DNA of 32,000 nucleotides from Candidatus Saccharimonadota bacterium. GTDB lineage: Bacteria; Bacteroidota; Bacteroidia; Cytophagales; Amoebophilaceae. The number at the start of each line of letters is the position of its first letter. Position 1 is the first letter of the stretch. The position numbers and the translations under genes were made by a program. Of this stretch, positions 10,304-19,863 are shown piece by piece. The stretch lies in assembly GCF_964030745.1 (NCBI RefSeq), contig NZ_OZ034918.1:1-32000 (forward strand), in the 5' to 3' direction. Under the pieces are notes generated by a model that saw only the letters and a list, made by a program, of their open reading frames with translations, made no database searches and was not told where the DNA came from.

Positions 10304-11587
10304 TTAATTGTGCGCTCCTATGCGTTCTAATAATTGCATGCTATAACCATCCCAGTCATGAATAACATTTCTAGCTACACCAGAATCAATAGCAGCTTGC
10401 GCAACGGCTACAGAAACGGTAGCGAGCAAACGTCTATCCATCGGCTTAGGGAGTAGGTATTCTTTTCCAAAATGCATGGTTCCCCCATAGTATTTACGCA
10501 CATCAACGGGTACCTCTTCTTGTGCCAGTTGTTGAATGGCTTGTACTGCAGCGCGTTGCATTGCTCCATTGATGACAGCAGCACGTACGTCTAAGGCCCC
10601 CCTAAAAATGTAAGGAAAAGCCAGTAAGTTATTGACTTGGTTGGGGTAATCACCACGTCCTGTGGCAAAGATTACATCTGGTCTAGCAGCCATAACATCT
10701 CGATAAGAAATTTCTGGAACAGGGTTGGCTAACCCAAAGATAATAGGATCTTTGGCCATTCGTTCCACACTCTGACTCATTAATAGGTTACCAGAAGAAA
10801 GGCCTATAAAAACATCTGACCCAACCACTGCATCATGTAGGGTATGTACAGAACGGTCTGTGGCAAAGGGTGCTTTAATAGGGTCTAGGTCATCTCTATC
10901 CTTACGAATTACCCCTTTTCGATCACACATAACGATATGGGCCGGATTGGCACCTAAGGCGATCAACAGCTTGGCTGTAGCGATTGCGCTTGCACCAGCT
11001 CCACTAAAGACGATTTGTGCCTGGGCAATATCCTTATTGACGATTAATAAAGCATTTAATAAAGCAGCTGCTGCCACAATAGCTGTAGCATGCTGGTCAT
11101 CATGCATAATAGGTATATCCAATTGAGCCATCAATGTTTCTTCAATTTCGAAGCATTCAGGTGCTTTAATGTCTTCTAGGTTCAGCGCACCAAAGGTAGG
11201 GGCTAATGCTTTAATGACCTGTATGACCTCTTGCGGAGTAGTGGCATCAATTTCAATATCAAAAGCATCTACGCCAGCAAACTTTTTTAAGATCATTGCC
11301 TTGGCTTCCATAACTGGTTTGGCCGCTAAAGGGCCAATAGCACCGTACCCTAATACGGCTGTACCATTGGATATAACAGCTACCAAGTTCCCCTTATTGG
11401 TATATTGATACACCTTTTCCGCAGATGCAGCAATTTCTTCGCAAATAACACCCATGCCAGGGGTATAAGCGGTAATGATATCACGAGGTGTATGGAGTGG
11501 CTTGGTAACATAGGTACCTATTTTCCCAGCAGGAAATTTAGCGTGATAGGCCAAAACTTCTTCTTTAGTAACAACTGTTTTATTCAT
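10304..11587 (-). CDS. NAD(P)-dependent malic enzyme (short form, no PTA domain)
   Basis: MNKTVVTKEEVLAYHAKFPAGKIG.., ISNGTAVLGYGAIGP, MHDDQHATAIV, and the dinucleotide-binding FSGAGASAIA. ATG at 11587; the ORF-track start at 11674 is probably too far upstream. Confidence 0.93.
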   Translation of the reverse strand: MNKTVVTKEEVLAYHAKFPAGKIGTYVTKPLHTPRDIITAYTPGMGVICEEIAASAEKVYQYTNKGNLVAVISNGTAVLGYGAIGPLAAKPVMEAKAMILKKFAGVDAFDIEIDATTPQEVIQVIKALAPTFGALNLEDIKAPECFEIEETLMAQLDIPIMHDDQHATAIVAAAALLNALLIVNKDIAQAQIVFSGAGASAIATAKLLIALGANPAHIVMCDRKGVIRKDRDDLDPIKAPFATDRSVHTLHDAVVGSDVFIGLSSGNLLMSQSVERMAKDPIIFGLANPVPEISYRDVMAARPDVIFATGRGDYPNQVNNLLAFPYIFRGALDVRAAVINGAMQRAAVQAIQQLAQEEVPVDVRKYYGGTMHFGKEYLLPKPMDRRLLATVSVAVAQAAIDSGVARNVIHDWDGYSMQLLERIGAHN

Positions 11588-11719
11588 GGTATTGGAACGT
11601 TTTATTGGTAAATATTGAATACTTTGATGCCTTTTTGTTTTAAGGAAAAGCTGAGCCAAGTTACTATTTTTCAACCATTTATACCAAAGGTAGCGGTGTG
11701 AATCAGCTGCCTAATTTAT

Positions 11720-11864
11720 AGCCTTCTTTTGAAACGCTAACTTCTACTGGTAATTTGCACGTCGATCCGGTGCTCAAATCCTCACGTACATCTAGTACGC
11801 TGCGGTTTTGCGCGCCGTGTCTCCTACAAATTCCTCAGCATAAGCGGGTTTCAAAATGAAGCCT
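11720..11864. mobile_element. Diverged third copy of the 142-bp MITE-like element (see 14454 and 15014)
   Basis: Left end agccttcttttgaaacgcta; the right end reverse-complements to aggcttcattttgaaacccgctta. Internal blocks match copies 1 and 2: ttctactggtaattt vs ttctaatggcaatttt, and acatctagtacgctgcggt vs acatctagtattctgcggt. It overlaps the last 14 nt of rlmN. Confidence 0.6.
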
Positions 11865-12939
11865 GTTGTAAGTGTTTGCTGCGCAATTGTCCACAAGCGG
11901 CATCAATATCTGTACCATGTTCTGCACGAACGGCTGCATGAATCCCCTGTGCGCGCAGGGTAGCCACAAAATGGCGAATGGCTTTAGGTGTACTCCGTTT
12001 GTAGTGGTCTAATTCATCTACAGGGTTATAGGGAATAAGGTTGACATGAATTAGATGACGTTGACTACGTGCCAAAATTAAATTTGCTAGCTCAAAAGCA
12101 GCTATTTCTGAGTCATTTACATCTTTGAGTAGAATGTATTCAAAGGTCACGCGTCTGTTTGTTTGCGCTAAATAGTAATCAACGGCTTCCATAAGTTTTT
12201 CTATGGGAATGGCCTTATTGAGCTTCATGATTTGTGTACGTAGTACATTATTGGCTGCATGTAAAGAAAGGGCAAGGTTTACCTGTAGTCCCTCATGTGC
12301 AAAGGCTTTGATTTTGCGGTCTAGGCCGCTGGTAGAAACGGTAATATGCCGTGCACCAATTGCAAGCCCTTGGGTATGGTTAACGATACGTATAAAGCGT
12401 AAAACATGATCATAGTTGTCAAATGGTTCTCCAATACCCATGACTACTATATGGCTAATTCTTTTTTGCGAGATATCCAACTTTTTCTGCATATGGAGCA
12501 GTTGTTCTACTATTTCGCCTGCCGTTAAATCTCTTTTTTTGGTCAAAAGACCACTGGCACAAAACGTACAGCCAATATTACAGCCCACTTGTGTAGTGAC
12601 ACAAATGGATAGGCCATAGCTATGTTCCATTAAAACGGTTTCAATTAAATTGCCATCCGTTAATTTTAGCAAACATTTGATGGTACCATCTTTTGCATAT
12701 TGCACCTTATCTTCTACCATAGAGGCCAATGCAAAGTGATCCTCTAAGAGCGACCGAGTTGTTAAGCTGAGGTCACTCATTTCACTAAAGCTATTGACCC
12801 GTTTTTGGTAAAGCCATTTCCAAATTTGGCTACAACGGAAGGGCTTTTCACCCCGTTCTTCTAGCCAAAGCATTAGCTCTTTTTCGGTTAAGTTATAAAT
12901 GGATGGCTTTGGTAAACAATTTACTGAGTGGTTTAACAT
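11851..12939 (-). CDS. rlmN: 23S rRNA/tRNA (adenine-C2)-methyltransferase RlmN (radical SAM)
   Basis: Radical-SAM [17 protein letters not shown], and C-terminal DIDAACGQL. 362 aa. Confidence 0.95.
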
Positions 12940-12959
12940 TTGAGTTAATGGAACAAATC

Positions 12960-14051
12960 CTATACATTAAAACGAAAAAGCATGACATCCCCATCTTGCA
13001 CAAGATACTCTTTACCTTCTATACGCAGCTTTCCTGCTTCACGACAGCCACTTTCACTTTTGTAGGTCTTATAGTCCTCAAAAGAAATAACCTCTGCTTT
13101 AATAAATCCTCGTTGAAAGTCTGTATGAATAACTCCGGCTGCTTGAGGGGCTTTGGTGCCATTTTGAATAGTCCATGCCCGAACTTCTTGTGGGCCTACC
13201 GTAAAATAAGTAATCAGATCAAGCAAGGAATAAGCCGATTGAATCAACTTGTCTAATGCAGACTCCATCAGGTTATACTCCTTTAAGAAAAAATCCTTCT
13301 CCTCACCATTTAATGCATTGATTTGTGCTTCCAATGCAGTAGAGCCAATAATCATTTTGCTATTTTCTGTAACTTCTTTCAGTGCAGCCAAGTGAGGATT
13401 GGCGCTTCCAAGTATGGTTGCTTCATCTACATTGGCAAAATAAATAACTGGTTTTGAGGTTAATAACTGCCACTCATCTATCAGTGGTTGATCTGCTGCT
13501 GCTACTGGAATGGCGCGTGCATCACGTCCCTGTTTGAGTGCTGTTAAAAATAGATTCAAGAGTTCGTAGGTATGTTGCTGCGCTTTGGGACCCTGTTTGG
13601 CCAGCTTCTCTATTTTCTCTAACCTTTTGGTTAAGGTATCGATATCCTTACACCGTAGCTCATGATCAATGATTTGTTTGTCAAAAACAGGGTCTACACT
13701 ACCCGCCACATGTACGACATCCTCATCTTCAAAACACCTGATTACATGTACAATCGCATCTACTTCTCGAATATGGTTCAGGAACTTATTACCCAGCCCC
13801 TCTCCTTGATGGGCATCCTTGACCAACCCAGCTATATCTACAAACTCTATAGCAGTAGGTATGATGTTTTTAGAATCTGCCAATGTGGCAAGCAGTTGCA
13901 TACGTGAATCTGGTACAGCTACTACACCTACATTAGGCTCTATGGTACAAAAAGGGAAATTGGCAGAGGCCGCATTGCCATTGGATAAGCCGTTAAATAA
14001 CATGGATTTGCCCACATTGGGCAAACCAACAAGGCCACATCTTAAAGCCAT
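12960..14051 (-). CDS. ychF: Ribosome-binding ATPase YchF
   Basis: G1 [24 protein letters not shown], and C-terminal [13 protein letters not shown].. plus [13 protein letters not shown]. 363 aa. Confidence 0.97.
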
Positions 14052-14100
14052 GAATCAAATGTATAGAATAAAAAAATATACGCAGCTAGCGCTAGGTCGC

Positions 14101-14406
14101 TTATTTGCTTGAATGCTCCTCTGCATTGCGATCAAATTGATCAAATGCATAGTCAGCCATTAGGGTCGTTTTAAGGTGATCAATTACTTCATTAAGCGCA
14201 CGAATGAACTTATTGACATCTTCCTTATATAGGAAGATTTTATGTTTTTCATAAGCCATGCCATCCATTTCTGCTCTTTTCTTACTTTCTGTGATGGTTA
14301 GGTAATAATCTTTACCTCTGGTTGACTTTATATCAAAGAAATAAACCCTTTTTCCTGCATTTACCCTTTTGGAATAAACCTCATCTAATCCTCTCTGTAA
14401 TTCCAC
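14101..14406 (-). CDS. PUR-like (DUF3276) nucleic-acid-binding protein typical of Bacteroidota
   Basis: VYSKRVNAGKRVYFFDIKSTRGKDYYLTITESKKR.. plus KIFLYKEDVNKFIRAL matches the PUR-repeat/DUF3276 pattern. GTG start per the ORF track. Confidence 0.8.
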   Translation of the reverse strand: MELQRGLDEVYSKRVNAGKRVYFFDIKSTRGKDYYLTITESKKRAEMDGMAYEKHKIFLYKEDVNKFIRALNEVIDHLKTTLMADYAFDQFDRNAEEHSSK

Positions 14407-14453
14407 TGTATAATTAATTTTATATATGTTCTGGTAACGCCTTTAACATCCAT

Positions 14454-14595
14454 AGACCTTCTGCAAAAGCTATTTCTAATGGCAATTTTGGTGTCGAAGC
14501 TTGTCTATGTTCCTCAAATACATCTAGTATTCTGCGGTACTCGACTGCGTTTCTCCCAAAAATTGCTGATCACAAATAGCTTTTTCAGAAGGTCT
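14454..14595. mobile_element. 142-bp MITE/Correia-like element, copy 1 (long terminal inverted repeats)
   Basis: agaccttctgcaaaagctatttctaatggcaattttgg... ...ccaaaaattgctgatcacaaatagctttttcagaaggtct. The outer 22 nt are a near-perfect inverted repeat, and the arms pair imperfectly over ~38 nt. 134/142 nt are identical to copy 2 in the same orientation. It overlaps the last 11 nt of the ferredoxin gene. Confidence 0.85.
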
Positions 14596-14932
14596 TATGT
14601 AAAAATTGCTTTTTTGCTAGCAATGCTTCTTTTGATTCTGGGTGATCTAGGTCCAATACACAACAATCTACCGGGCAAACTGCTGCACATTGTGGCTCTT
14701 CATGAAAGCCTACACATTCGGTGCATTTATCTGTAACAATATAAAACGTGTCATCTGCATAAGGTGCTTGTGGCAAGGTTGCATCCAATATTTCCCCTTT
14801 TGCCTCTACTGTTTTCAATTGTGTACCTTCAGCCCACTGCCAATCTGTTCCACCCTCATATATTGCAGTATTGGGGCATTCCACCGCGCACGCACCACAA
14901 TTGATACATGCTTCTGTTATCCGTAAGGCCAT
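14585..14932 (-). CDS. 2[4Fe-4S] ferredoxin (Alvin/YfhL-like spacing)
   Basis: CINCGACAVECP (CxxCxxCxxxCP) plus CTECVGFHEEPQCAAVCP (CxxCx8CxxxCP). The last residues ..KTF* are encoded by the MITE terminal repeat. Confidence 0.93.
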   Translation of the reverse strand: MALRITEACINCGACAVECPNTAIYEGGTDWQWAEGTQLKTVEAKGEILDATLPQAPYADDTFYIVTDKCTECVGFHEEPQCAAVCPVDCCVLDLDHPESKEALLAKKQFLHKTF

Positions 14933-15013
14933 AACTTCTAAAATTGTTCTATCTGCCAGCTAAGTTAATAGAAATAAAAGACTACAGCAAATCTTTGGTT
15001 TGGGTGGATCATT

Positions 15014-15155
15014 AGACCTTCTGCAAAACCTATTTCTAATGGCAATTTTGGTGTCGAAGCTTGTCTATGCTCCTCAAATACATCTAGTATTCTGCGGTGC
15101 TCGACTGTGCTTCTCCTAAAAATTGCTGATCACAAATAGCTTGTGCAGAAGGTCT
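15014..15155. mobile_element. 142-bp MITE/Correia-like element, copy 2
   Basis: Same length and orientation as copy 1, with 8 mismatches counted by hand. Terminal repeats are agaccttctgcaaaacctattt / aaatagcttgtgcagaaggtct. Flanked by ta...ta if the element is taken as gacc..ggtc. It ends 4 nt before the greA stop codon. Confidence 0.85.
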
Positions 15156-15159
15156 ATTA

Positions 15160-15630
15160 TCAAAGATCTAACCCGATTTTTAAAATTTCCAGTTCAATGA
15201 TACCAGATGGGGTATTTACTTGCGCAACCTCTGATACCTTTTTGCCTAATAATCCCTTGCCCATAGGGGAGTCAACAGATATTTTACCCTGCTTTAAGTC
15301 GGCTTCTCCTTGTGAGACAAGCATGAAAACAGATTCTGTACCTGTTTTTTTATTCCTAACGCGCGTTTTAGAAAGAATGGAAACCCGAGATAAGTCAATT
15401 TCACTTTCCTTTAATACTCTAGCATTAGCTACTAAAGTTTCTAAGGCAGCAATCTTTGCTTCTAACAAGCCTTGCGCATCCCTTGCGGCATCGTATTCCG
15501 CATTTTCACTTAAATCCCCTTTTTTATGCGCTTCTGCCAGATCATTGGCTACTCGAATACGTCCTTCGCTTTTTAACCAACTGAGTTCTTTCTTCATGCG
15601 CTCTAGCCCTTCTTCTGTATAATAGGTCAT
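15160..15630 (-). CDS. greA: Transcription elongation factor GreA
   Basis: MTYYTEEGLERMKKEL.., GDLSENAEYDAARD, and C-terminal ..VDSPMGKGLLGKKVSEV... ATG at 15630; the ORF-track start at 15693 lies 21 codons upstream. Confidence 0.95.
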   Translation of the reverse strand: MTYYTEEGLERMKKELSWLKSEGRIRVANDLAEAHKKGDLSENAEYDAARDAQGLLEAKIAALETLVANARVLKESEIDLSRVSILSKTRVRNKKTGTESVFMLVSQGEADLKQGKISVDSPMGKGLLGKKVSEVAQVNTPSGIIELEILKIGLDL

Positions 15631-15733
15631 TGATATTCTATGGTTTATAGTTTTAATTATTTTTTTACGATACTTGTTGTTCCATTGCCTCAAGAATAGT
15701 GCTTGCTAAACAGATGTTAGATTTGCTTAGCTA

Positions 15734-15898
15734 CTAAAGCAGTATGGATACAAATAGAAGTAAGAAGGCAATAAATAGCATGCTAAACTTATACCCAGCC
15801 AGTATGGGTATGACTACAACGCCCCCATGCATACCTATAGAAAGCAGGGCAATAAGCACTGCTAAAAATCTTGCAATGGCTTTCATATTACCTTTCAT
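15734..15898 (-). CDS. Possible 54-aa two-helix small membrane protein (below the ORF-track size cutoff)
   Basis: Hand translation: MKGNMKAIARFLAVLIALLSIGMHGGVVVIPILAGYKFSMLFIAFLLLFVSILL*. It has two hydrophobic segments and no homology evidence. It competes with a plus-strand 76-aa ORF over the same DNA. Confidence 0.3.
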   Translation of the reverse strand: MKGNMKAIARFLAVLIALLSIGMHGGVVVIPILAGYKFSMLFIAFLLLFVSILL

Positions 15899-16420
15899 GT
15901 TAATTAAATTGTGTTTACAAAAATTATGCTTTCAGCTGCTATCTAAGCATTTTGTTGCATGCAAACCAACCTAAAAAATAAGGACATTTTTCGTTGTTTG
16001 CTAACTAGTGATGCCATGAAGTTGGCTTGGTTTTAAACCAAAACTATCTGATGTTGGCATGGACAAAAGGCTAATATAAAAAAATAAAAGACGAAAATAA
16101 TGCATAACCTGTAGTTAGATCTAGATCCTATGGGATGTTAGTGATGCATGGGGGCGTAGGAAACGTAATACAGTAAAAATGTGGGGGATATATCATACAG
16201 CTATTTAGGACTATCAAATATATTTCTTAGATTCGCGTAAATGTTTCCAAGTGATCAATAGACATTTTGCAAGGAGATATCTTTGCCCTATGGGGATATT
16301 GCTATAAACTGGATTATCCCACCCAGTTGAACGATATGCTAGAGCATATTAATAGCAAACTGGCATTGGATTTGTAAACAACTTAGCGAGCATCGAGTAG
16401 TCCATTGTAATATATTTTTT

Positions 16421-17602
16421 ATGATTGGTATTCAAGGAGTTTCTTTTAAAGACAAAAAAGTACTCATACGGGTTGATTTTAATGTCCCTATAACAGACGA
16501 GGGTGTCATTACTGATGACTGGCGTATTCGAAGGAGTTTGCCAACGATTCAAAAAGTAACACAGGATCGAGGCATAGCCATTTTACTCTCTCATTTTGGA
16601 AGACCTAAAGATGGGTATGAACGACGTTATTCGCTAAGCAGACTCTTACCTGTATTATCTAATTTATTGCAACAACCTATTCGGTTTGCATCCAGTTGTA
16701 TAGGCGCAGCGGTGCAAGAACAGATAGGCATGCTAGAACCAGGCCATATCTTATTACTGGAGAATGTTCGTTTCCATGCAGAAGAAACATTAGAGGATAG
16801 TAACTTTGCGCGGGGCTTGGCTGCATTGGCAGATGTCTATATCAATGAAGCCTTTGGAGCCATTCATAGAAATCATGCCTCTACTAGTTTATTGCCTACT
16901 TATTTTAAAGAACGTTATGCTGGCTATTTATTACAGCAAGAAATAGCGGCTATTGATAGGCTTTTTTCAAAGGAAGAAGCTCCTGTGGTTGCTATTATGG
17001 GCGGGAGTAAATTGGTAGATAAAGCCAAACCTATTGAAGGTTTAATGCGTTATGTAGACCATATATTGATTGGTGGAGGGCTTGTGTTGCCTTTTTACCA
17101 TGCGGGGCAGGCTAAACAGCTGGTCTATACTGAAACAGAGGCAATTGCTAGCAGGTTGTTTGGCGTGTTGCGCAACAGCCACTGTCAATTATGGTTGCCT
17201 ACAGATGTCTTAACTGCCCCTGAAATGGATAAGCAGGCTATGCTATCTACCGCATCACTTGCGCATATGCCATGTAACGCCAATATTGTAGATATTGGGC
17301 CAGCCGCGCAAGCCCACTTTGCTGCACAGATCCTACAGGCTAAGACCATCTTATGGGCCGGTCCTATGGGCGTATTTGAGTGGGAGCAGTGTGTTGCTGG
17401 TACTGTGGCTATTGCACAGGCCATTGCACAAGCTACTGCGCAGGGTGCCTACAGCATAGTGGGAGGGGGAGATACCGCTGCTGCTGTTAAGCAAATAGGA
17501 TATGAAAATCAGGTTTCCTATATTTCCACAGGAGGAGGAGCGTTGCTGGCCTATATTGCAGCAGATAGAAAACTACCAAGTTTAGAGGCACTTAAGGAAT
17601 AG
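16421..17602 (+). CDS. pgk: Phosphoglycerate kinase
   Basis: VLIRVDFNVP, FGRPKDG, and GGGDTAAAV near the C-terminus. 393 aa. Confidence 0.96.
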   Translation: MIGIQGVSFKDKKVLIRVDFNVPITDEGVITDDWRIRRSLPTIQKVTQDRGIAILLSHFGRPKDGYERRYSLSRLLPVLSNLLQQPIRFASSCIGAAVQEQIGMLEPGHILLLENVRFHAEETLEDSNFARGLAALADVYINEAFGAIHRNHASTSLLPTYFKERYAGYLLQQEIAAIDRLFSKEEAPVVAIMGGSKLVDKAKPIEGLMRYVDHILIGGGLVLPFYHAGQAKQLVYTETEAIASRLFGVLRNSHCQLWLPTDVLTAPEMDKQAMLSTASLAHMPCNANIVDIGPAAQAHFAAQILQAKTILWAGPMGVFEWEQCVAGTVAIAQAIAQATAQGAYSIVGGGDTAAAVKQIGYENQVSYISTGGGALLAYIAADRKLPSLEALKE

Positions 17603-17643: not shown

Positions 17644-19863
17644 ATGAATATGTTGCGTAAAAAAATCTTGCTGTCTGGAATATATATAGGGTTGTATATG
17701 GGCGTTATATACCCTATTTATGGCACTAGCCAACAAGCGATCCCGTCAGTTGATCAGATTATAATAGCAAAACCAATACCTATAGAAAAGCATATAACAC
17801 CTATAGAGGTGCACCTAGCAGCTGCCAAGGGAAATGCAACCCATATTCGTTCTTTAATTGCTGCTGGCAAAAACGTGCAGGTATTGGACAAAAATAAAAT
17901 TAGTGCACTCCATATTGCCGCTGCTAAAGGTTATTTACTTTGTGTACAAGAACTTATTAATGTAGGTGTGCCAGTTAATATAGTAGATTACTTAGGTAGA
18001 ACACCACTCTATCTTGCGGCTCAAAATGGACACCTGGCCATTGTTCGAGAGCTGATTGCGGTTGGTGCGACCAATCGGCTCTCCGATGGCCACGGTAGGA
18101 CACCCTTGCATGTTGCTGCAGGAGCTGGCCAAGCCTCATGCGTGCAATACTTAATTCAAAAGGGTGCGCATGTACATGTAAATGGATTTGATCAAGATGG
18201 TTTTACACCCTTACATTATGCTGCTTTGTCAGGTTCATTTGCATCTGTTCAAGCTTTAGTAAATGCCGGTGCAAAGGTGCAGCTGTTTACCAAACAGCAT
18301 ATCACCCCTTTACATGCTGCTGCGCAAAGTGGTGATGTTGCTTCTATACGGCTATTAATCCATCACCATGCTCCTGTAAATGCCATTACACCAAATGGTA
18401 TTTCACCTCTTTACCTAGCGGCTCAATATGGTAAAATAGCTGCGTGCAAAGAACTGTTACATTCTAAAGCAGATATTCATGCAGTAGAAGGGCTCAATAC
18501 GCCTTTACATGCTGCTGTTTTAGGTGGCCATTTAGATTGCGTAAATCTATTATTAAAGGCAGGTAGCGATCCATCTGCGTGTAATAAGGAAAAAAATACC
18601 CCTCTGCATATAGCAGCTCGGGATGGTAAAAGCGATTGCTTGAAAGCATTAATAGCCGTAAATGAAGCATATGTACAGTTAGTAGGTGAAAAGCAGCGAA
18701 CCCCTTTGCATTGGGCAGCTCGATCAGGCCATCTTGCTTGTATAGAGCAACTTATTGAGGCAGGGGCGACTATCAATGTTACAGATTTCCATAACAAAAC
18801 CCCTCTGCATCTAAGCGCTTTCTATGGACACGATCGTTGCCTAGATAGGTTGCTACAAGCTGGTGCCAACCCACGTGCTGCCACTCATATAGGATTTACA
18901 CCATTGCATATGGCTACCAAAAGCAGCAATATAAGGTGCTTACAAGCGTTGTTAGAAGCTGGTGCCGAGCCTTCTATTGTCGACAGTTTTAAAAATACCC
19001 CCCTTCATTTATCTACTGCCTTTCAAAATATAGATGCTAGCTTGGAGCTTATAAAAGCTGATGCATCATGCGTAAACATGGCCAATGAATGGGGGGTAAT
19101 ACCACTACATCTAGCTGCAAAAGCAGGGGACTTGATTGCTTTGCAAGCACTTATCGAAGCAAAATCTAAAGTGAATGCTGCAAAAAAAACAGATGCTACC
19201 GCTTTGCATATAGTGGCACAAAGAGGCTACATAGCTTGTTTAAAAGCATTGATACAAGCAGGTGGAAAGGTTAGGGTCTACAATAAGGCTAAGGAAACCC
19301 CACTCTACCTAGCTGCTGCTAATGGCCATTTGGATTGTGTAGAGGCATTGATTGAAGCCGATCAAAATCAGCACTCTATAACCAAAAAGCTCAAAAGCAA
19401 GCTAGAGGGGCAACCACTTCTCAACAAGGTTATGAAAAACAAGCCTAAATTAGATATGGCCAATAAATTTAATGAAACCCCTTTATATGCTGCAGTCAAA
19501 AATGGGCATACTGATTGTGTGGTATTCCTGACACGTTCTGGTGCAAAAGTAAATATTAAAAATAAGCAAGGAGAATCCCTCTTACATCTTGCTGCACAAC
19601 ATGGTTGTGAAGTCTGTGTAAGGGCTATTCTAGGTGCAAAAGGTGCAAAAGCAGGTATTAATGCACTAGACTCCTATAAAAATACACCGTTACATCTTGC
19701 TGCTCAGAATGGTCATATTAAAGTGGTGCAAGAACTCATAAGAGCAGGTGCGTTATCAAAGAAAAATAAGTTTAATAAGACGCCTGCTTATTTGGCACTA
19801 CAGAATGGGCATGAAAAGTGCCATCAATTGTTGAATATTTACTTTGAGCATCAATCAAAATAA
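17644..19863 (+). CDS. Ankyrin-repeat protein, 20 tandem ANK repeats, N-terminal signal peptide or membrane anchor
   Basis: N-terminus MNMLRKKILLSGIYIGLYMGVIYPIYGTSQQ. This is followed by 20 units of the type xTPLHxAAxxGHxxCVxxLIxAGAxVN, counted by hand. One ~40-aa Lys-rich non-ANK insert (DQNQHSITKKLKSKLEGQPLLNKVMKNKPKLD) lies between repeats 16 and 17. Confidence 0.95.
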   Translation: MNMLRKKILLSGIYIGLYMGVIYPIYGTSQQAIPSVDQIIIAKPIPIEKHITPIEVHLAAAKGNATHIRSLIAAGKNVQVLDKNKISALHIAAAKGYLLCVQELINVGVPVNIVDYLGRTPLYLAAQNGHLAIVRELIAVGATNRLSDGHGRTPLHVAAGAGQASCVQYLIQKGAHVHVNGFDQDGFTPLHYAALSGSFASVQALVNAGAKVQLFTKQHITPLHAAAQSGDVASIRLLIHHHAPVNAITPNGISPLYLAAQYGKIAACKELLHSKADIHAVEGLNTPLHAAVLGGHLDCVNLLLKAGSDPSACNKEKNTPLHIAARDGKSDCLKALIAVNEAYVQLVGEKQRTPLHWAARSGHLACIEQLIEAGATINVTDFHNKTPLHLSAFYGHDRCLDRLLQAGANPRAATHIGFTPLHMATKSSNIRCLQALLEAGAEPSIVDSFKNTPLHLSTAFQNIDASLELIKADASCVNMANEWGVIPLHLAAKAGDLIALQALIEAKSKVNAAKKTDATALHIVAQRGYIACLKALIQAGGKVRVYNKAKETPLYLAAANGHLDCVEALIEADQNQHSITKKLKSKLEGQPLLNKVMKNKPKLDMANKFNETPLYAAVKNGHTDCVVFLTRSGAKVNIKNKQGESLLHLAAQHGCEVCVRAILGAKGAKAGINALDSYKNTPLHLAAQNGHIKVVQELIRAGALSKKNKFNKTPAYLALQNGHEKCHQLLNIYFEHQSK

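Follow-up and report, generated by a model that had tools for sequence, protein, structure and literature searches.

RPE-1-type palindromic elements on either side of a ferredoxin gene in a Cardinium-clade endosymbiont: probable recent insertions

Rickettsia palindromic elements (RPEs) are a curiosity of the textbooks, being selfish palindromes that reside within the proteins of Rickettsia. RPE-1 was reportedly described by Ogata et al. in 2000 and 2002, and to our knowledge the mechanism of RPE mobilisation has never been established since the description of 2000. Here we analyse a stretch of 32,000 nucleotides (contig NZ_OZ034918.1, positions 1 to 32,000; hereafter the window) from an endosymbiont of the Cardinium clade (Bacteroidota, Amoebophilaceae), in which two direct copies of a palindromic element, copies 1 and 2, lie on either side of the ferredoxin gene fdx. 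With a probability of roughly 0.85 these copies represent separate and fairly recent insertions of a non-autonomous RPE-1-family palindrome of about 142 bp. In-frame residence within proteins is the hallmark of Rickettsia palindromic elements (PMC10969869, PMC4316617, PMC3767692), which the literature calls specific to Rickettsia and to which relatives are known in Wolbachia (PMC3767692). The window element has in common with RPE-1 a size of ~140-150 bp, an imperfect palindrome extending over the whole element, the apical core and the architecture of internal loops, and both are dispersed and multi-copy, the window element as far as the loci covered show, and have no known transposase. It differs in that the window copies lack one loop nucleotide and carry stops in the sense frame, which leaves them non-coding, in that the host is a Bacteroidota symbiont, so that the restriction to Rickettsia does not hold here, and in that empty sites and a 3-bp target duplication show the insertions of the window to be recent.

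Other described systems resemble the locus in part. The Correia (NEMIS) and ERIC elements are palindromic intergenic repeats of 100-155 bp that yield hairpin RNAs and can alter the expression of neighbouring genes; they differ from the window element in their TA duplication, where that of the window element is 3 bp of variable sequence, and in their unrelated sequences and hosts. The REPIN-RAYT systems, which are mainly inherited vertically, share with it the long hairpin-forming doublets whose pairing is kept by compensatory change, and we know of no REPIN that makes target duplications. In Cardinium cOegib, MITECca01 and MITECca02 are non-autonomous elements with terminal inverted repeats, mostly intergenic (Halter et al. 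2022, PMC9769881). MITECca01, ~240 bp long, carries inverted repeats of the IS982 (ISCca4) type, can be traced to a parent insertion sequence (IS) and is reported only from cOegib (PMC9769881). The likeness lies in a non-autonomous element with terminal inverted repeats that has multiplied in a Cardinium genome, but the window element has no parent found and is shared with Alphaproteobacteria; set beside the published description, an identification with MITECca01 was rejected on size (142 bp), termini and distribution. As regards the general features of a MITE (a transposable element of the miniature inverted-repeat class), the window element has terminal inverted repeats, a length below 300 bp, no transposase, a target duplication and empty sites, whereas a parental autonomous IS with the same termini was not found in the genome fragments searched.

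Three repeats and their relation to RPE-1

The window holds three copies of the element:

14454..14595, minus strand: copy 1, RPE-1-type palindromic element of the Cardinium subfamily; limits from the breakpoints against the related locus L015; 29.9 bits on TIGR01045 after frameshift correction
15014..15155, minus strand: copy 2, RPE-1-type element; 95% identical to L022:7601-7742
11720..11864, minus strand: copy 3, canonical (Rickettsia-like) RPE-1 subfamily, older; 66.9 bits on TIGR01045 after correction

Copies 1 and 2 are both 142 bp long and lie in the same orientation, 560 bp apart as direct repeats, with 8 mismatches between them (94.4% identity), in line with the ~94% given in a preliminary description of this DNA. 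The 22-nt terminal inverted repeats proposed there are also confirmed, the terminal 22-mer AGACCTTCTGCAAAAGCTATTT occurring four times with at most one mismatch where shuffled sequences lead one to expect none; the element ends read AGACC...GGTCT. A hairpin with arms complementary over ~38 nt had been suggested as well. The hairpin itself is borne out by the minimum free energy (MFE) of the copies (142-145 bp), which ranges from -50 to -58 kcal/mol (z = -5 to -8.6 with respect to shuffles, and -7 to -8.6 for copies 1 and 2), but the 38-nt extent is too short, as the self-complementarity of copies 1 and 2 spans the entire element and makes it a full-length imperfect palindrome. One of the 8 differences between the two copies forms part of a compensated pair (positions 56 and 85). 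No transposase open reading frame (ORF) was found within copies 1 and 2, as had been stated, and an Rfam scan of positions 11000-16500 at E<=1 gave no match. Copy 3, to which the preliminary description had alluded, was found by low-stringency self-BLAST with end points read from the sequence; it lies 2.6 kb from copies 1 and 2, overlaps the rlmN stop codon and is 57-58% identical to them in an end-to-end alignment, with a core common to all. Stop codons are present in all three sense frames of the window copies. An 85-aa ORF (14479-14736, plus strand) begins within copy 1 and extends antisense into fdx; since the reverse frames of the palindrome are open, it is probably spurious, of the kind that such elements create.

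On the NCBIfam profile TIGR01045 ("RPE1"; cut-off 30 bits) copy 3 as it stands scores 27.4 bits, through its second half; with one nucleotide restored at the hairpin apex it reaches 66.9 bits (E 1e-18) and covers positions 5-45 of the 48 in the profile. The apex reads TACTTAGATGTA in Rickettsia and TACTAGATGTA in the window, and this single missing T explains the stop codon in the window copies. The corrected peptide of copy 3 matches RPE1-annotated proteins of a Rickettsia endosymbiont with 70-81% identity; for the Rickettsia RPE1 protein P0129, whose DNA lies in locus L021, the identity is 70%. At the DNA level copy 3 aligns with the Rickettsia RPE1 at L021:4050-4156 with 87% identity over 107 nt (E 3e-29), and with the L021 copy (4033-4167) with 74% over 142 nt. 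On these sequence comparisons copy 3 can be placed firmly in the RPE-1 family.

For copies 1 and 2 the assignment is less direct. Uncorrected, they score 13 bits on TIGR01045, and after the same correction 29.9 bits (copy 1) and 26.8 bits (copy 2); the Cardinium ORF P0127, which belongs to the same subfamily and has an intact frame, reaches 29.7 bits, so the cut-off of the profile narrowly misses the Cardinium subfamily, a point of relevance for annotation. End to end, they align with the Rickettsia copy at 56-57% DNA identity and share its invariant core. The peptide profile retrieved a Holosporaceae protein named 'palindromic element RPE1 domain-containing protein', an ORF already labelled RPE1 by the NCBI pipeline, together with two unnamed Cardinium ORFs. 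Because of the shared architecture and core, the presence of copy 3 and the intermediate Cardinium copies, copies 1 and 2 are, judged by their sequence, a diverged RPE-1 subfamily.

The predicted structures are consistent with this assignment. MFE structures of one window copy, the Rickettsia copy and one PG1894 copy (the last from metagenome-assembled genomes, MAGs) are alike, with a long terminal stem, small internal loops, a 6-bp apical stem and a loop of 5-6 nt. When the Rickettsia structure was imposed on an alignment of 21 copies, 79% of the cells were paired, compared with 64% in shuffled alignments and 38-44% with slid partners, and changes on both sides are seen in 38 of the 59 pairs. 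Across the Cardinium, Rickettsia, Holosporaceae and other alphaproteobacterial copies the apical motif ACCGCAG..TAC-TAGAT-GTA..TGAGGA is invariant and the long-hairpin architecture is kept via compensatory changes. Near-identical PG1894 copies have differing termini that are still perfectly complementary (e.g. GAGACCGCTGCA, GAGACAGCTGCA, GAGACTGCTGCA, GAGATCGCTGCA and GAGGCCTTTGCA), which argues that the pairing of the ends matters more than their exact sequence. In 18 of the 21 copies the strand carrying ACCGCAG...TGAGGA, which is the mRNA sense strand of every window copy, has a more stable fold than the complementary strand, a count whose independence is overstated by shared descent.

Filled and empty sites

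The closest relatives of the window fdx protein are Cardinium proteins (77-88% identity), and the order greA-fdx-DUF3276-ychF(-rlmN) is kept in the Cardinium-clade loci L015-L020 and L024. The greA-fdx spacer measures 83-131 bp in L015-L019 and 227 bp in the window, the fdx-DUF3276 spacer 35-66 bp and 178 bp, respectively. The preliminary description had named beforehand, as a test, the comparison with empty sites in related genomes; multiple alignment and BLAST showed both sites to be empty in all five related loci (L015-L019), with homology to the window ending precisely at the element boundaries. The breakpoint of copy 1 (14453/14597) corresponds to contiguous positions of L015 (2514/2515), and that of copy 2 (15013/15156) to L015 2098-2100, where the two segments overlap by 3 nt. 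Removal of the element together with one flanking triplet gives a gap-free match to the empty sites. Thus, ctttgatAAT[element]AATgatcc at copy 2 is matched by ctttaaaaattatcc in L015, and tttttacATA[element]ATGgatgttaa at copy 1 by tttttacatgggtgttaa. Each insertion added 142 bp and a 3-bp target duplication, located as follows:

14451..14453: copy 1 target duplication, downstream in gene orientation; gene strand ATG, plus strand CAT, with tttttacATGggtgttaa at the L015 empty site
14596..14598: copy 1 target duplication, upstream in gene orientation; gene strand now ATA, plus strand TAT, one substitution from ATG
15011..15013: copy 2 target duplication; gene strand AAT, plus strand ATT
15156..15158: copy 2 target duplication, second copy; gene strand AAT

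Copies 1 and 2 are two independent insertions, because fdx stands in its ancestral place and both the flanks and the target duplications of the two copies differ. The arrangement of a single gene flanked by direct repeats had led the preliminary description to speak of a bracketed fdx and of a recombination substrate that could delete or mobilise it, and a composite unit that brought fdx here or can excise it would have this appearance. Such a unit has an extremely slim chance of being real, given that greA-fdx-DUF3276 is ancestral and free of the element in L015-L020 and L024, that each copy has its own target duplication, and that fdx is conserved in all relatives, so that its deletion is probably selected against. 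The bracketing would then be a coincidence in a compact operon whose only two spacers each received an insertion.

If attention is confined to the window, where just two near-identical copies are visible 560 bp apart, a local segmental duplication or a conserved, non-mobile regulatory intergenic sequence might also come to mind. The probability of either is negligible. Besides the five empty orthologous sites and the differing flanks and duplications, copies with 92-95% identity to copies 1 and 2 are present at unrelated loci of another Cardinium genome (Cardinium sp. CP101107, L022), which holds five copies and a half copy in 20 kb. The mobile family favoured in the preliminary description is upheld in this way, the empty sites and dispersed copies excluding conserved intergenic DNA. 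Its description of the element as MITE-like also stands, in that the element is non-autonomous, bears terminal inverted repeats, forms a hairpin, is multi-copy within and across genomes and is missing from its sites in relatives.

Regarding the age of the insertions, copy 2 is 4 substitutions away from the subfamily consensus and copy 1 is 8 away. The nearest relative has neither copy, and its identity to the flanking DNA is no more than 81-84%. With so few substitutions from the consensus, flanks of this divergence and empty sites, both insertions postdate the split from that relative. In L024 the greA-fdx spacer is 471 nt long and contains a different hairpin element of ~190 nt (3553-3745; fold z = -4.2; ends TTGAGGCCGTTGCA...TGCAACGGCCTTAA) that the RPE profile does not match, so this spacer has been invaded independently.

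The length of the duplication was examined in further copies. It is perfect over 3 bp in window copy 2, in copies a (ATA), b (AAT), c (ATT) and d (CTA) of L022 and in both L027 copies (AAT), and matches at two of the three positions in window copy 1 and in copy e of L022. For the PG1894 copies the duplication is ATG three times and TAA once. A 5-bp duplication model for the Cardinium copies was rejected against the empty sites and flanks. The triplet AAT is duplicated in four independent insertions in Cardinium and Holosporaceae (window 15014-15155, L022 10064-10205, L027 3761-3906 and 6004-6151), and the ATG duplication of the three PG1894 copies sometimes falls at a gene start codon; the recurrence of AAT and ATG hints at a target preference.

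These duplications bear on two further alternatives. The preliminary description had proposed a Correia-like element and asked about a TA target duplication, as expected from a Correia- or ERIC-type MITE moved by an IS630/Tc1-like transposase, and the similar size, the terminal inverted repeats, the missing ORF, the intergenic position and the AT-rich target agree with that. We consider it extremely unlikely: a TA model needs a 3-bp indel at the copy 2 site, where a 3-bp duplication fits gap-free, the duplicated triplets (AAT, ATA, ATT, CTA, ATG) are variable, and the peptide and DNA matches point to RPE-1 (TIGR01045). A core-pattern scan of other genomes also gave no match in Neisseria or enterobacteria, a weak argument, as the pattern was built from the RPE family's own core. 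In a REPIN-like system, two inverted REP units would be moved as single-stranded DNA by a RAYT (Y1/HUH) transposase, and the long imperfect palindrome with its compensatory pairing and its variable but paired termini is what such units would show. Against it, the 3-bp target duplications are clear here, the Pfam labels of the fetched loci, the only DNA covered, include no Y1 transposase, and the family is spread across phyla, which makes this alternative very unlikely.

Operon context, hairpin RNAs and possible mobilisation

On the minus strand the order is greA, copy 2, fdx, copy 1, the DUF3276 gene, ychF, rlmN, copy 3 and the malic enzyme gene, and the genes next to copies 1 and 2 are:

15160..15693, minus strand: greA; ORF as found, orthologues 156 aa
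14585..14932, minus strand: fdx, 115-aa 2x[4Fe-4S] ferredoxin with an element-derived C-terminal KTF*
14101..14406, minus strand: DUF3276 (PUR-like) gene, downstream of copy 1

Since its orthologues have 156 aa, the true start of greA is probably internal to the listed ORF. The flanking genes are co-oriented, as the preliminary description had it. It needs correction in that all of them lie on the minus strand, and its placement of each copy precisely in an intergenic gap holds for copy 2 only, because fdx ends 11 nt inside copy 1. Copy 2 was inserted 4 nt beyond the end of greA, counted from its stop codon, and just upstream of a conserved, promoter-like fdx motif, GAYTTGYTGYARTCTTTTATTTCTRTTAA (window 14940-14990), which its insertion left intact. 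This motif, conserved at the equivalent positions of L015-L019 and L024, is probably the fdx promoter or leader.

Copy 1 was inserted within the last three fdx codons, and the final 11 nt of that ORF, its stop codon among them (14585-14595), are copy 1 sequence, which supplies part of a Lys codon followed by Thr, Phe and the TGA stop. The C-terminus reads ...FLHKTF* in the window and ...FLHGC* or ...FLHGE* in relatives. Copy 3 overlaps the last 4 codons and the stop of rlmN, whose product ends in ...HLQQASF* in the window and in ...QLKARAAIRPIAIGINS* in L019; the rlmN orthologue of cCpun has a longer tail unrelated to that of the window. For annotation, the elements create spurious ORFs and altered gene ends (fdx, rlmN). 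For the fdx locus the effect is modest: two residues differ at a C-terminus that is not conserved, and the operon has gained two large hairpins.

In the scenario that we favour, the element would be moved in trans by an enzyme encoded elsewhere, which would make 3-bp staggered cuts and depend on the paired termini and the conserved apex rather than on a fixed terminal sequence. Frame-broken copies would persist only between genes or in dispensable last codons. The position of all three window copies at gene 3' ends would be explained in this way, as they carry stop codons in every sense frame. The termini were searched with mismatches in the window and the fetched loci (genome fragments only), and no extra or solo termini flanking a transposase were seen. 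An additional right end in L004 was considered as the trace of a parent IS and rejected, being a 40-nt mini-hairpin beside a methyltransferase-like ORF, not a transposase. The ISRpe1 transposase, common to Rickettsia and Cardinium, was considered as a candidate mobiliser.

The copies would be co-transcribed with greA-fdx-DUF3276 and form imperfect RNA hairpins of ~70 bp. The preliminary description had attributed to them a possible promoter or terminator role, which finds no backing here: in a consensus scan for generic sigma-70 promoters and terminators the promoter- and terminator-like counts equalled those of shuffles and none was tied to the elements, and no U-tract follows the hairpin of either copy 1 or copy 2 when read from the sequence. 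An effect on mRNA processing or stability would be plausible. Most likely the RNA hairpins would either be neutral or modulate these two processes mildly, and would act neither as promoters nor as intrinsic terminators.

A stronger version would have the RPE insertions co-opted, their long sense-strand RNA hairpins working between the cistrons as signals for processing, stabilisation or attenuation, by which the expression ratio of greA, fdx and DUF3276 would be set. It could draw on the more stable sense RNA in 18 of the 21 family members, on the fact that about 9 of 10 Cardinium copies are co-oriented with the adjacent gene, and on the compensatory changes that keep the hairpin, including pair 56/85 between copies 1 and 2. 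We nevertheless hold co-option to be unlikely, as the same operon runs without the elements in the closest relatives, neither a U-tract nor a promoter signature is present, and both the orientation bias and the strand asymmetry may stem from the family founder or from the mechanism of mobilisation.

Several points weigh against the reading of copies 1 and 2 as separate, fairly recent RPE-1 insertions. Both copies stay just under the TIGR01045 cut-off even after a conceptual frameshift correction, and their identity to the Rickettsia copy is only the 56-57% given above. Covariation among related mobile copies may partly reflect shared descent. No mobilising enzyme or parental IS was found in the ~250 kb of fetched loci, the copy count for the genome of the window covers these 32 kb, and the effects at the RNA level are a matter of inference. 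As a limit on novelty, it was within a limited open-access literature that no paper describing RPEs from Cardinium or Holosporales came to light.

Apart from the operon, the window encodes a 739-aa protein that consists nearly entirely of ankyrin repeats (17644-19863, plus strand). Ankyrin-repeat proteins are typical of intracellular symbionts, and this one supports an endosymbiont origin of the window.

Family members in other genomes

A core pattern shared by the three window copies (CCGCAGnnTACTAGATGTAnnTGAG) was scanned against one genome from each of 185,579 species and gave 14 matches, 1 in a Cardinium endosymbiont (L013) and 13 in three alphaproteobacterial MAGs, all of them palindromes of ~140-185 nt with AGAC...GTCT-type ends. 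The pattern was over-specific and understates the distribution, as it missed Rickettsia, with its TACTTAGATGTA apex, and most Cardinium copies, which have TAAATG. Three copies lie within the 32-kb window, two in 8 kb of L013 and two in L027, and in the PG1894 MAGs copies are dense, with up to three per 8 kb.

Copy 3 is 87% identical to its Rickettsia counterpart over the stretch given above, whereas Cardinium housekeeping DNA is only 72-84% identical between lineages, and this suggests that a non-autonomous element has spread horizontally between phyla with arthropod hosts in common. Gene exchange between Rickettsia and Cardinium is documented (PMC4316617), which makes an RPE shared by the two plausible. 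Tentatively, and at somewhat less than even odds in our judgement, RPE-1 might, instead of a relic confined to Rickettsia, be a mobile hairpin defined by its structure, one that passes from phylum to phylum where intracellular symbionts (Rickettsia, Holosporales-like Alphaproteobacteria and Cardinium) live side by side and whose activity in Cardinium continues or ended very recently. If this is true, the empty and filled sites, the 3-bp duplication, the variable but paired termini and the invariant apex would define what the mobiliser must recognise, and a comparison of gene content among RPE-bearing genomes could identify it. What is new here, as far as the literature covered goes, is RPE-1 in a Bacteroidota symbiont and clean filled and empty sites, which would constrain the mechanism of RPE mobilisation to a 3-bp staggered cut, a dependence on paired ends and a conserved apex.

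The PG1894 copies have one sense frame open from end to end, and several lie in frame between Pfam domains of housekeeping proteins (PmbA/TldD, Mur ligase, PGI), as is classic for RPEs. The window copies, in contrast, are not resident in frame within coding genes and lie only at or after gene 3' ends. In some PG1894 copies (L003 242-429, L004 6458-6630, L006 2319-2517 and L011 2367-2538) one arm has additional hairpin modules of 13-15 nt (GACACTTGTGTC), one or two in number, nested within it; these copies are 160-185 nt long and their sense frame is still open. The mini-hairpin of 40 nt at L004 7545-7588 consists of just two PG1894-type termini (AGAGACTGCCGCATAATGGATCCATTATGCAGCAGTCTCT) and looks like an internal-deletion derivative. 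In L022 an RPE copy overlaps the 5' end of a PF04754 gene (Transposase_31, PD-(D/E)XK; 17876-18547), and the half copy (4515-4583) adjoins copy d.

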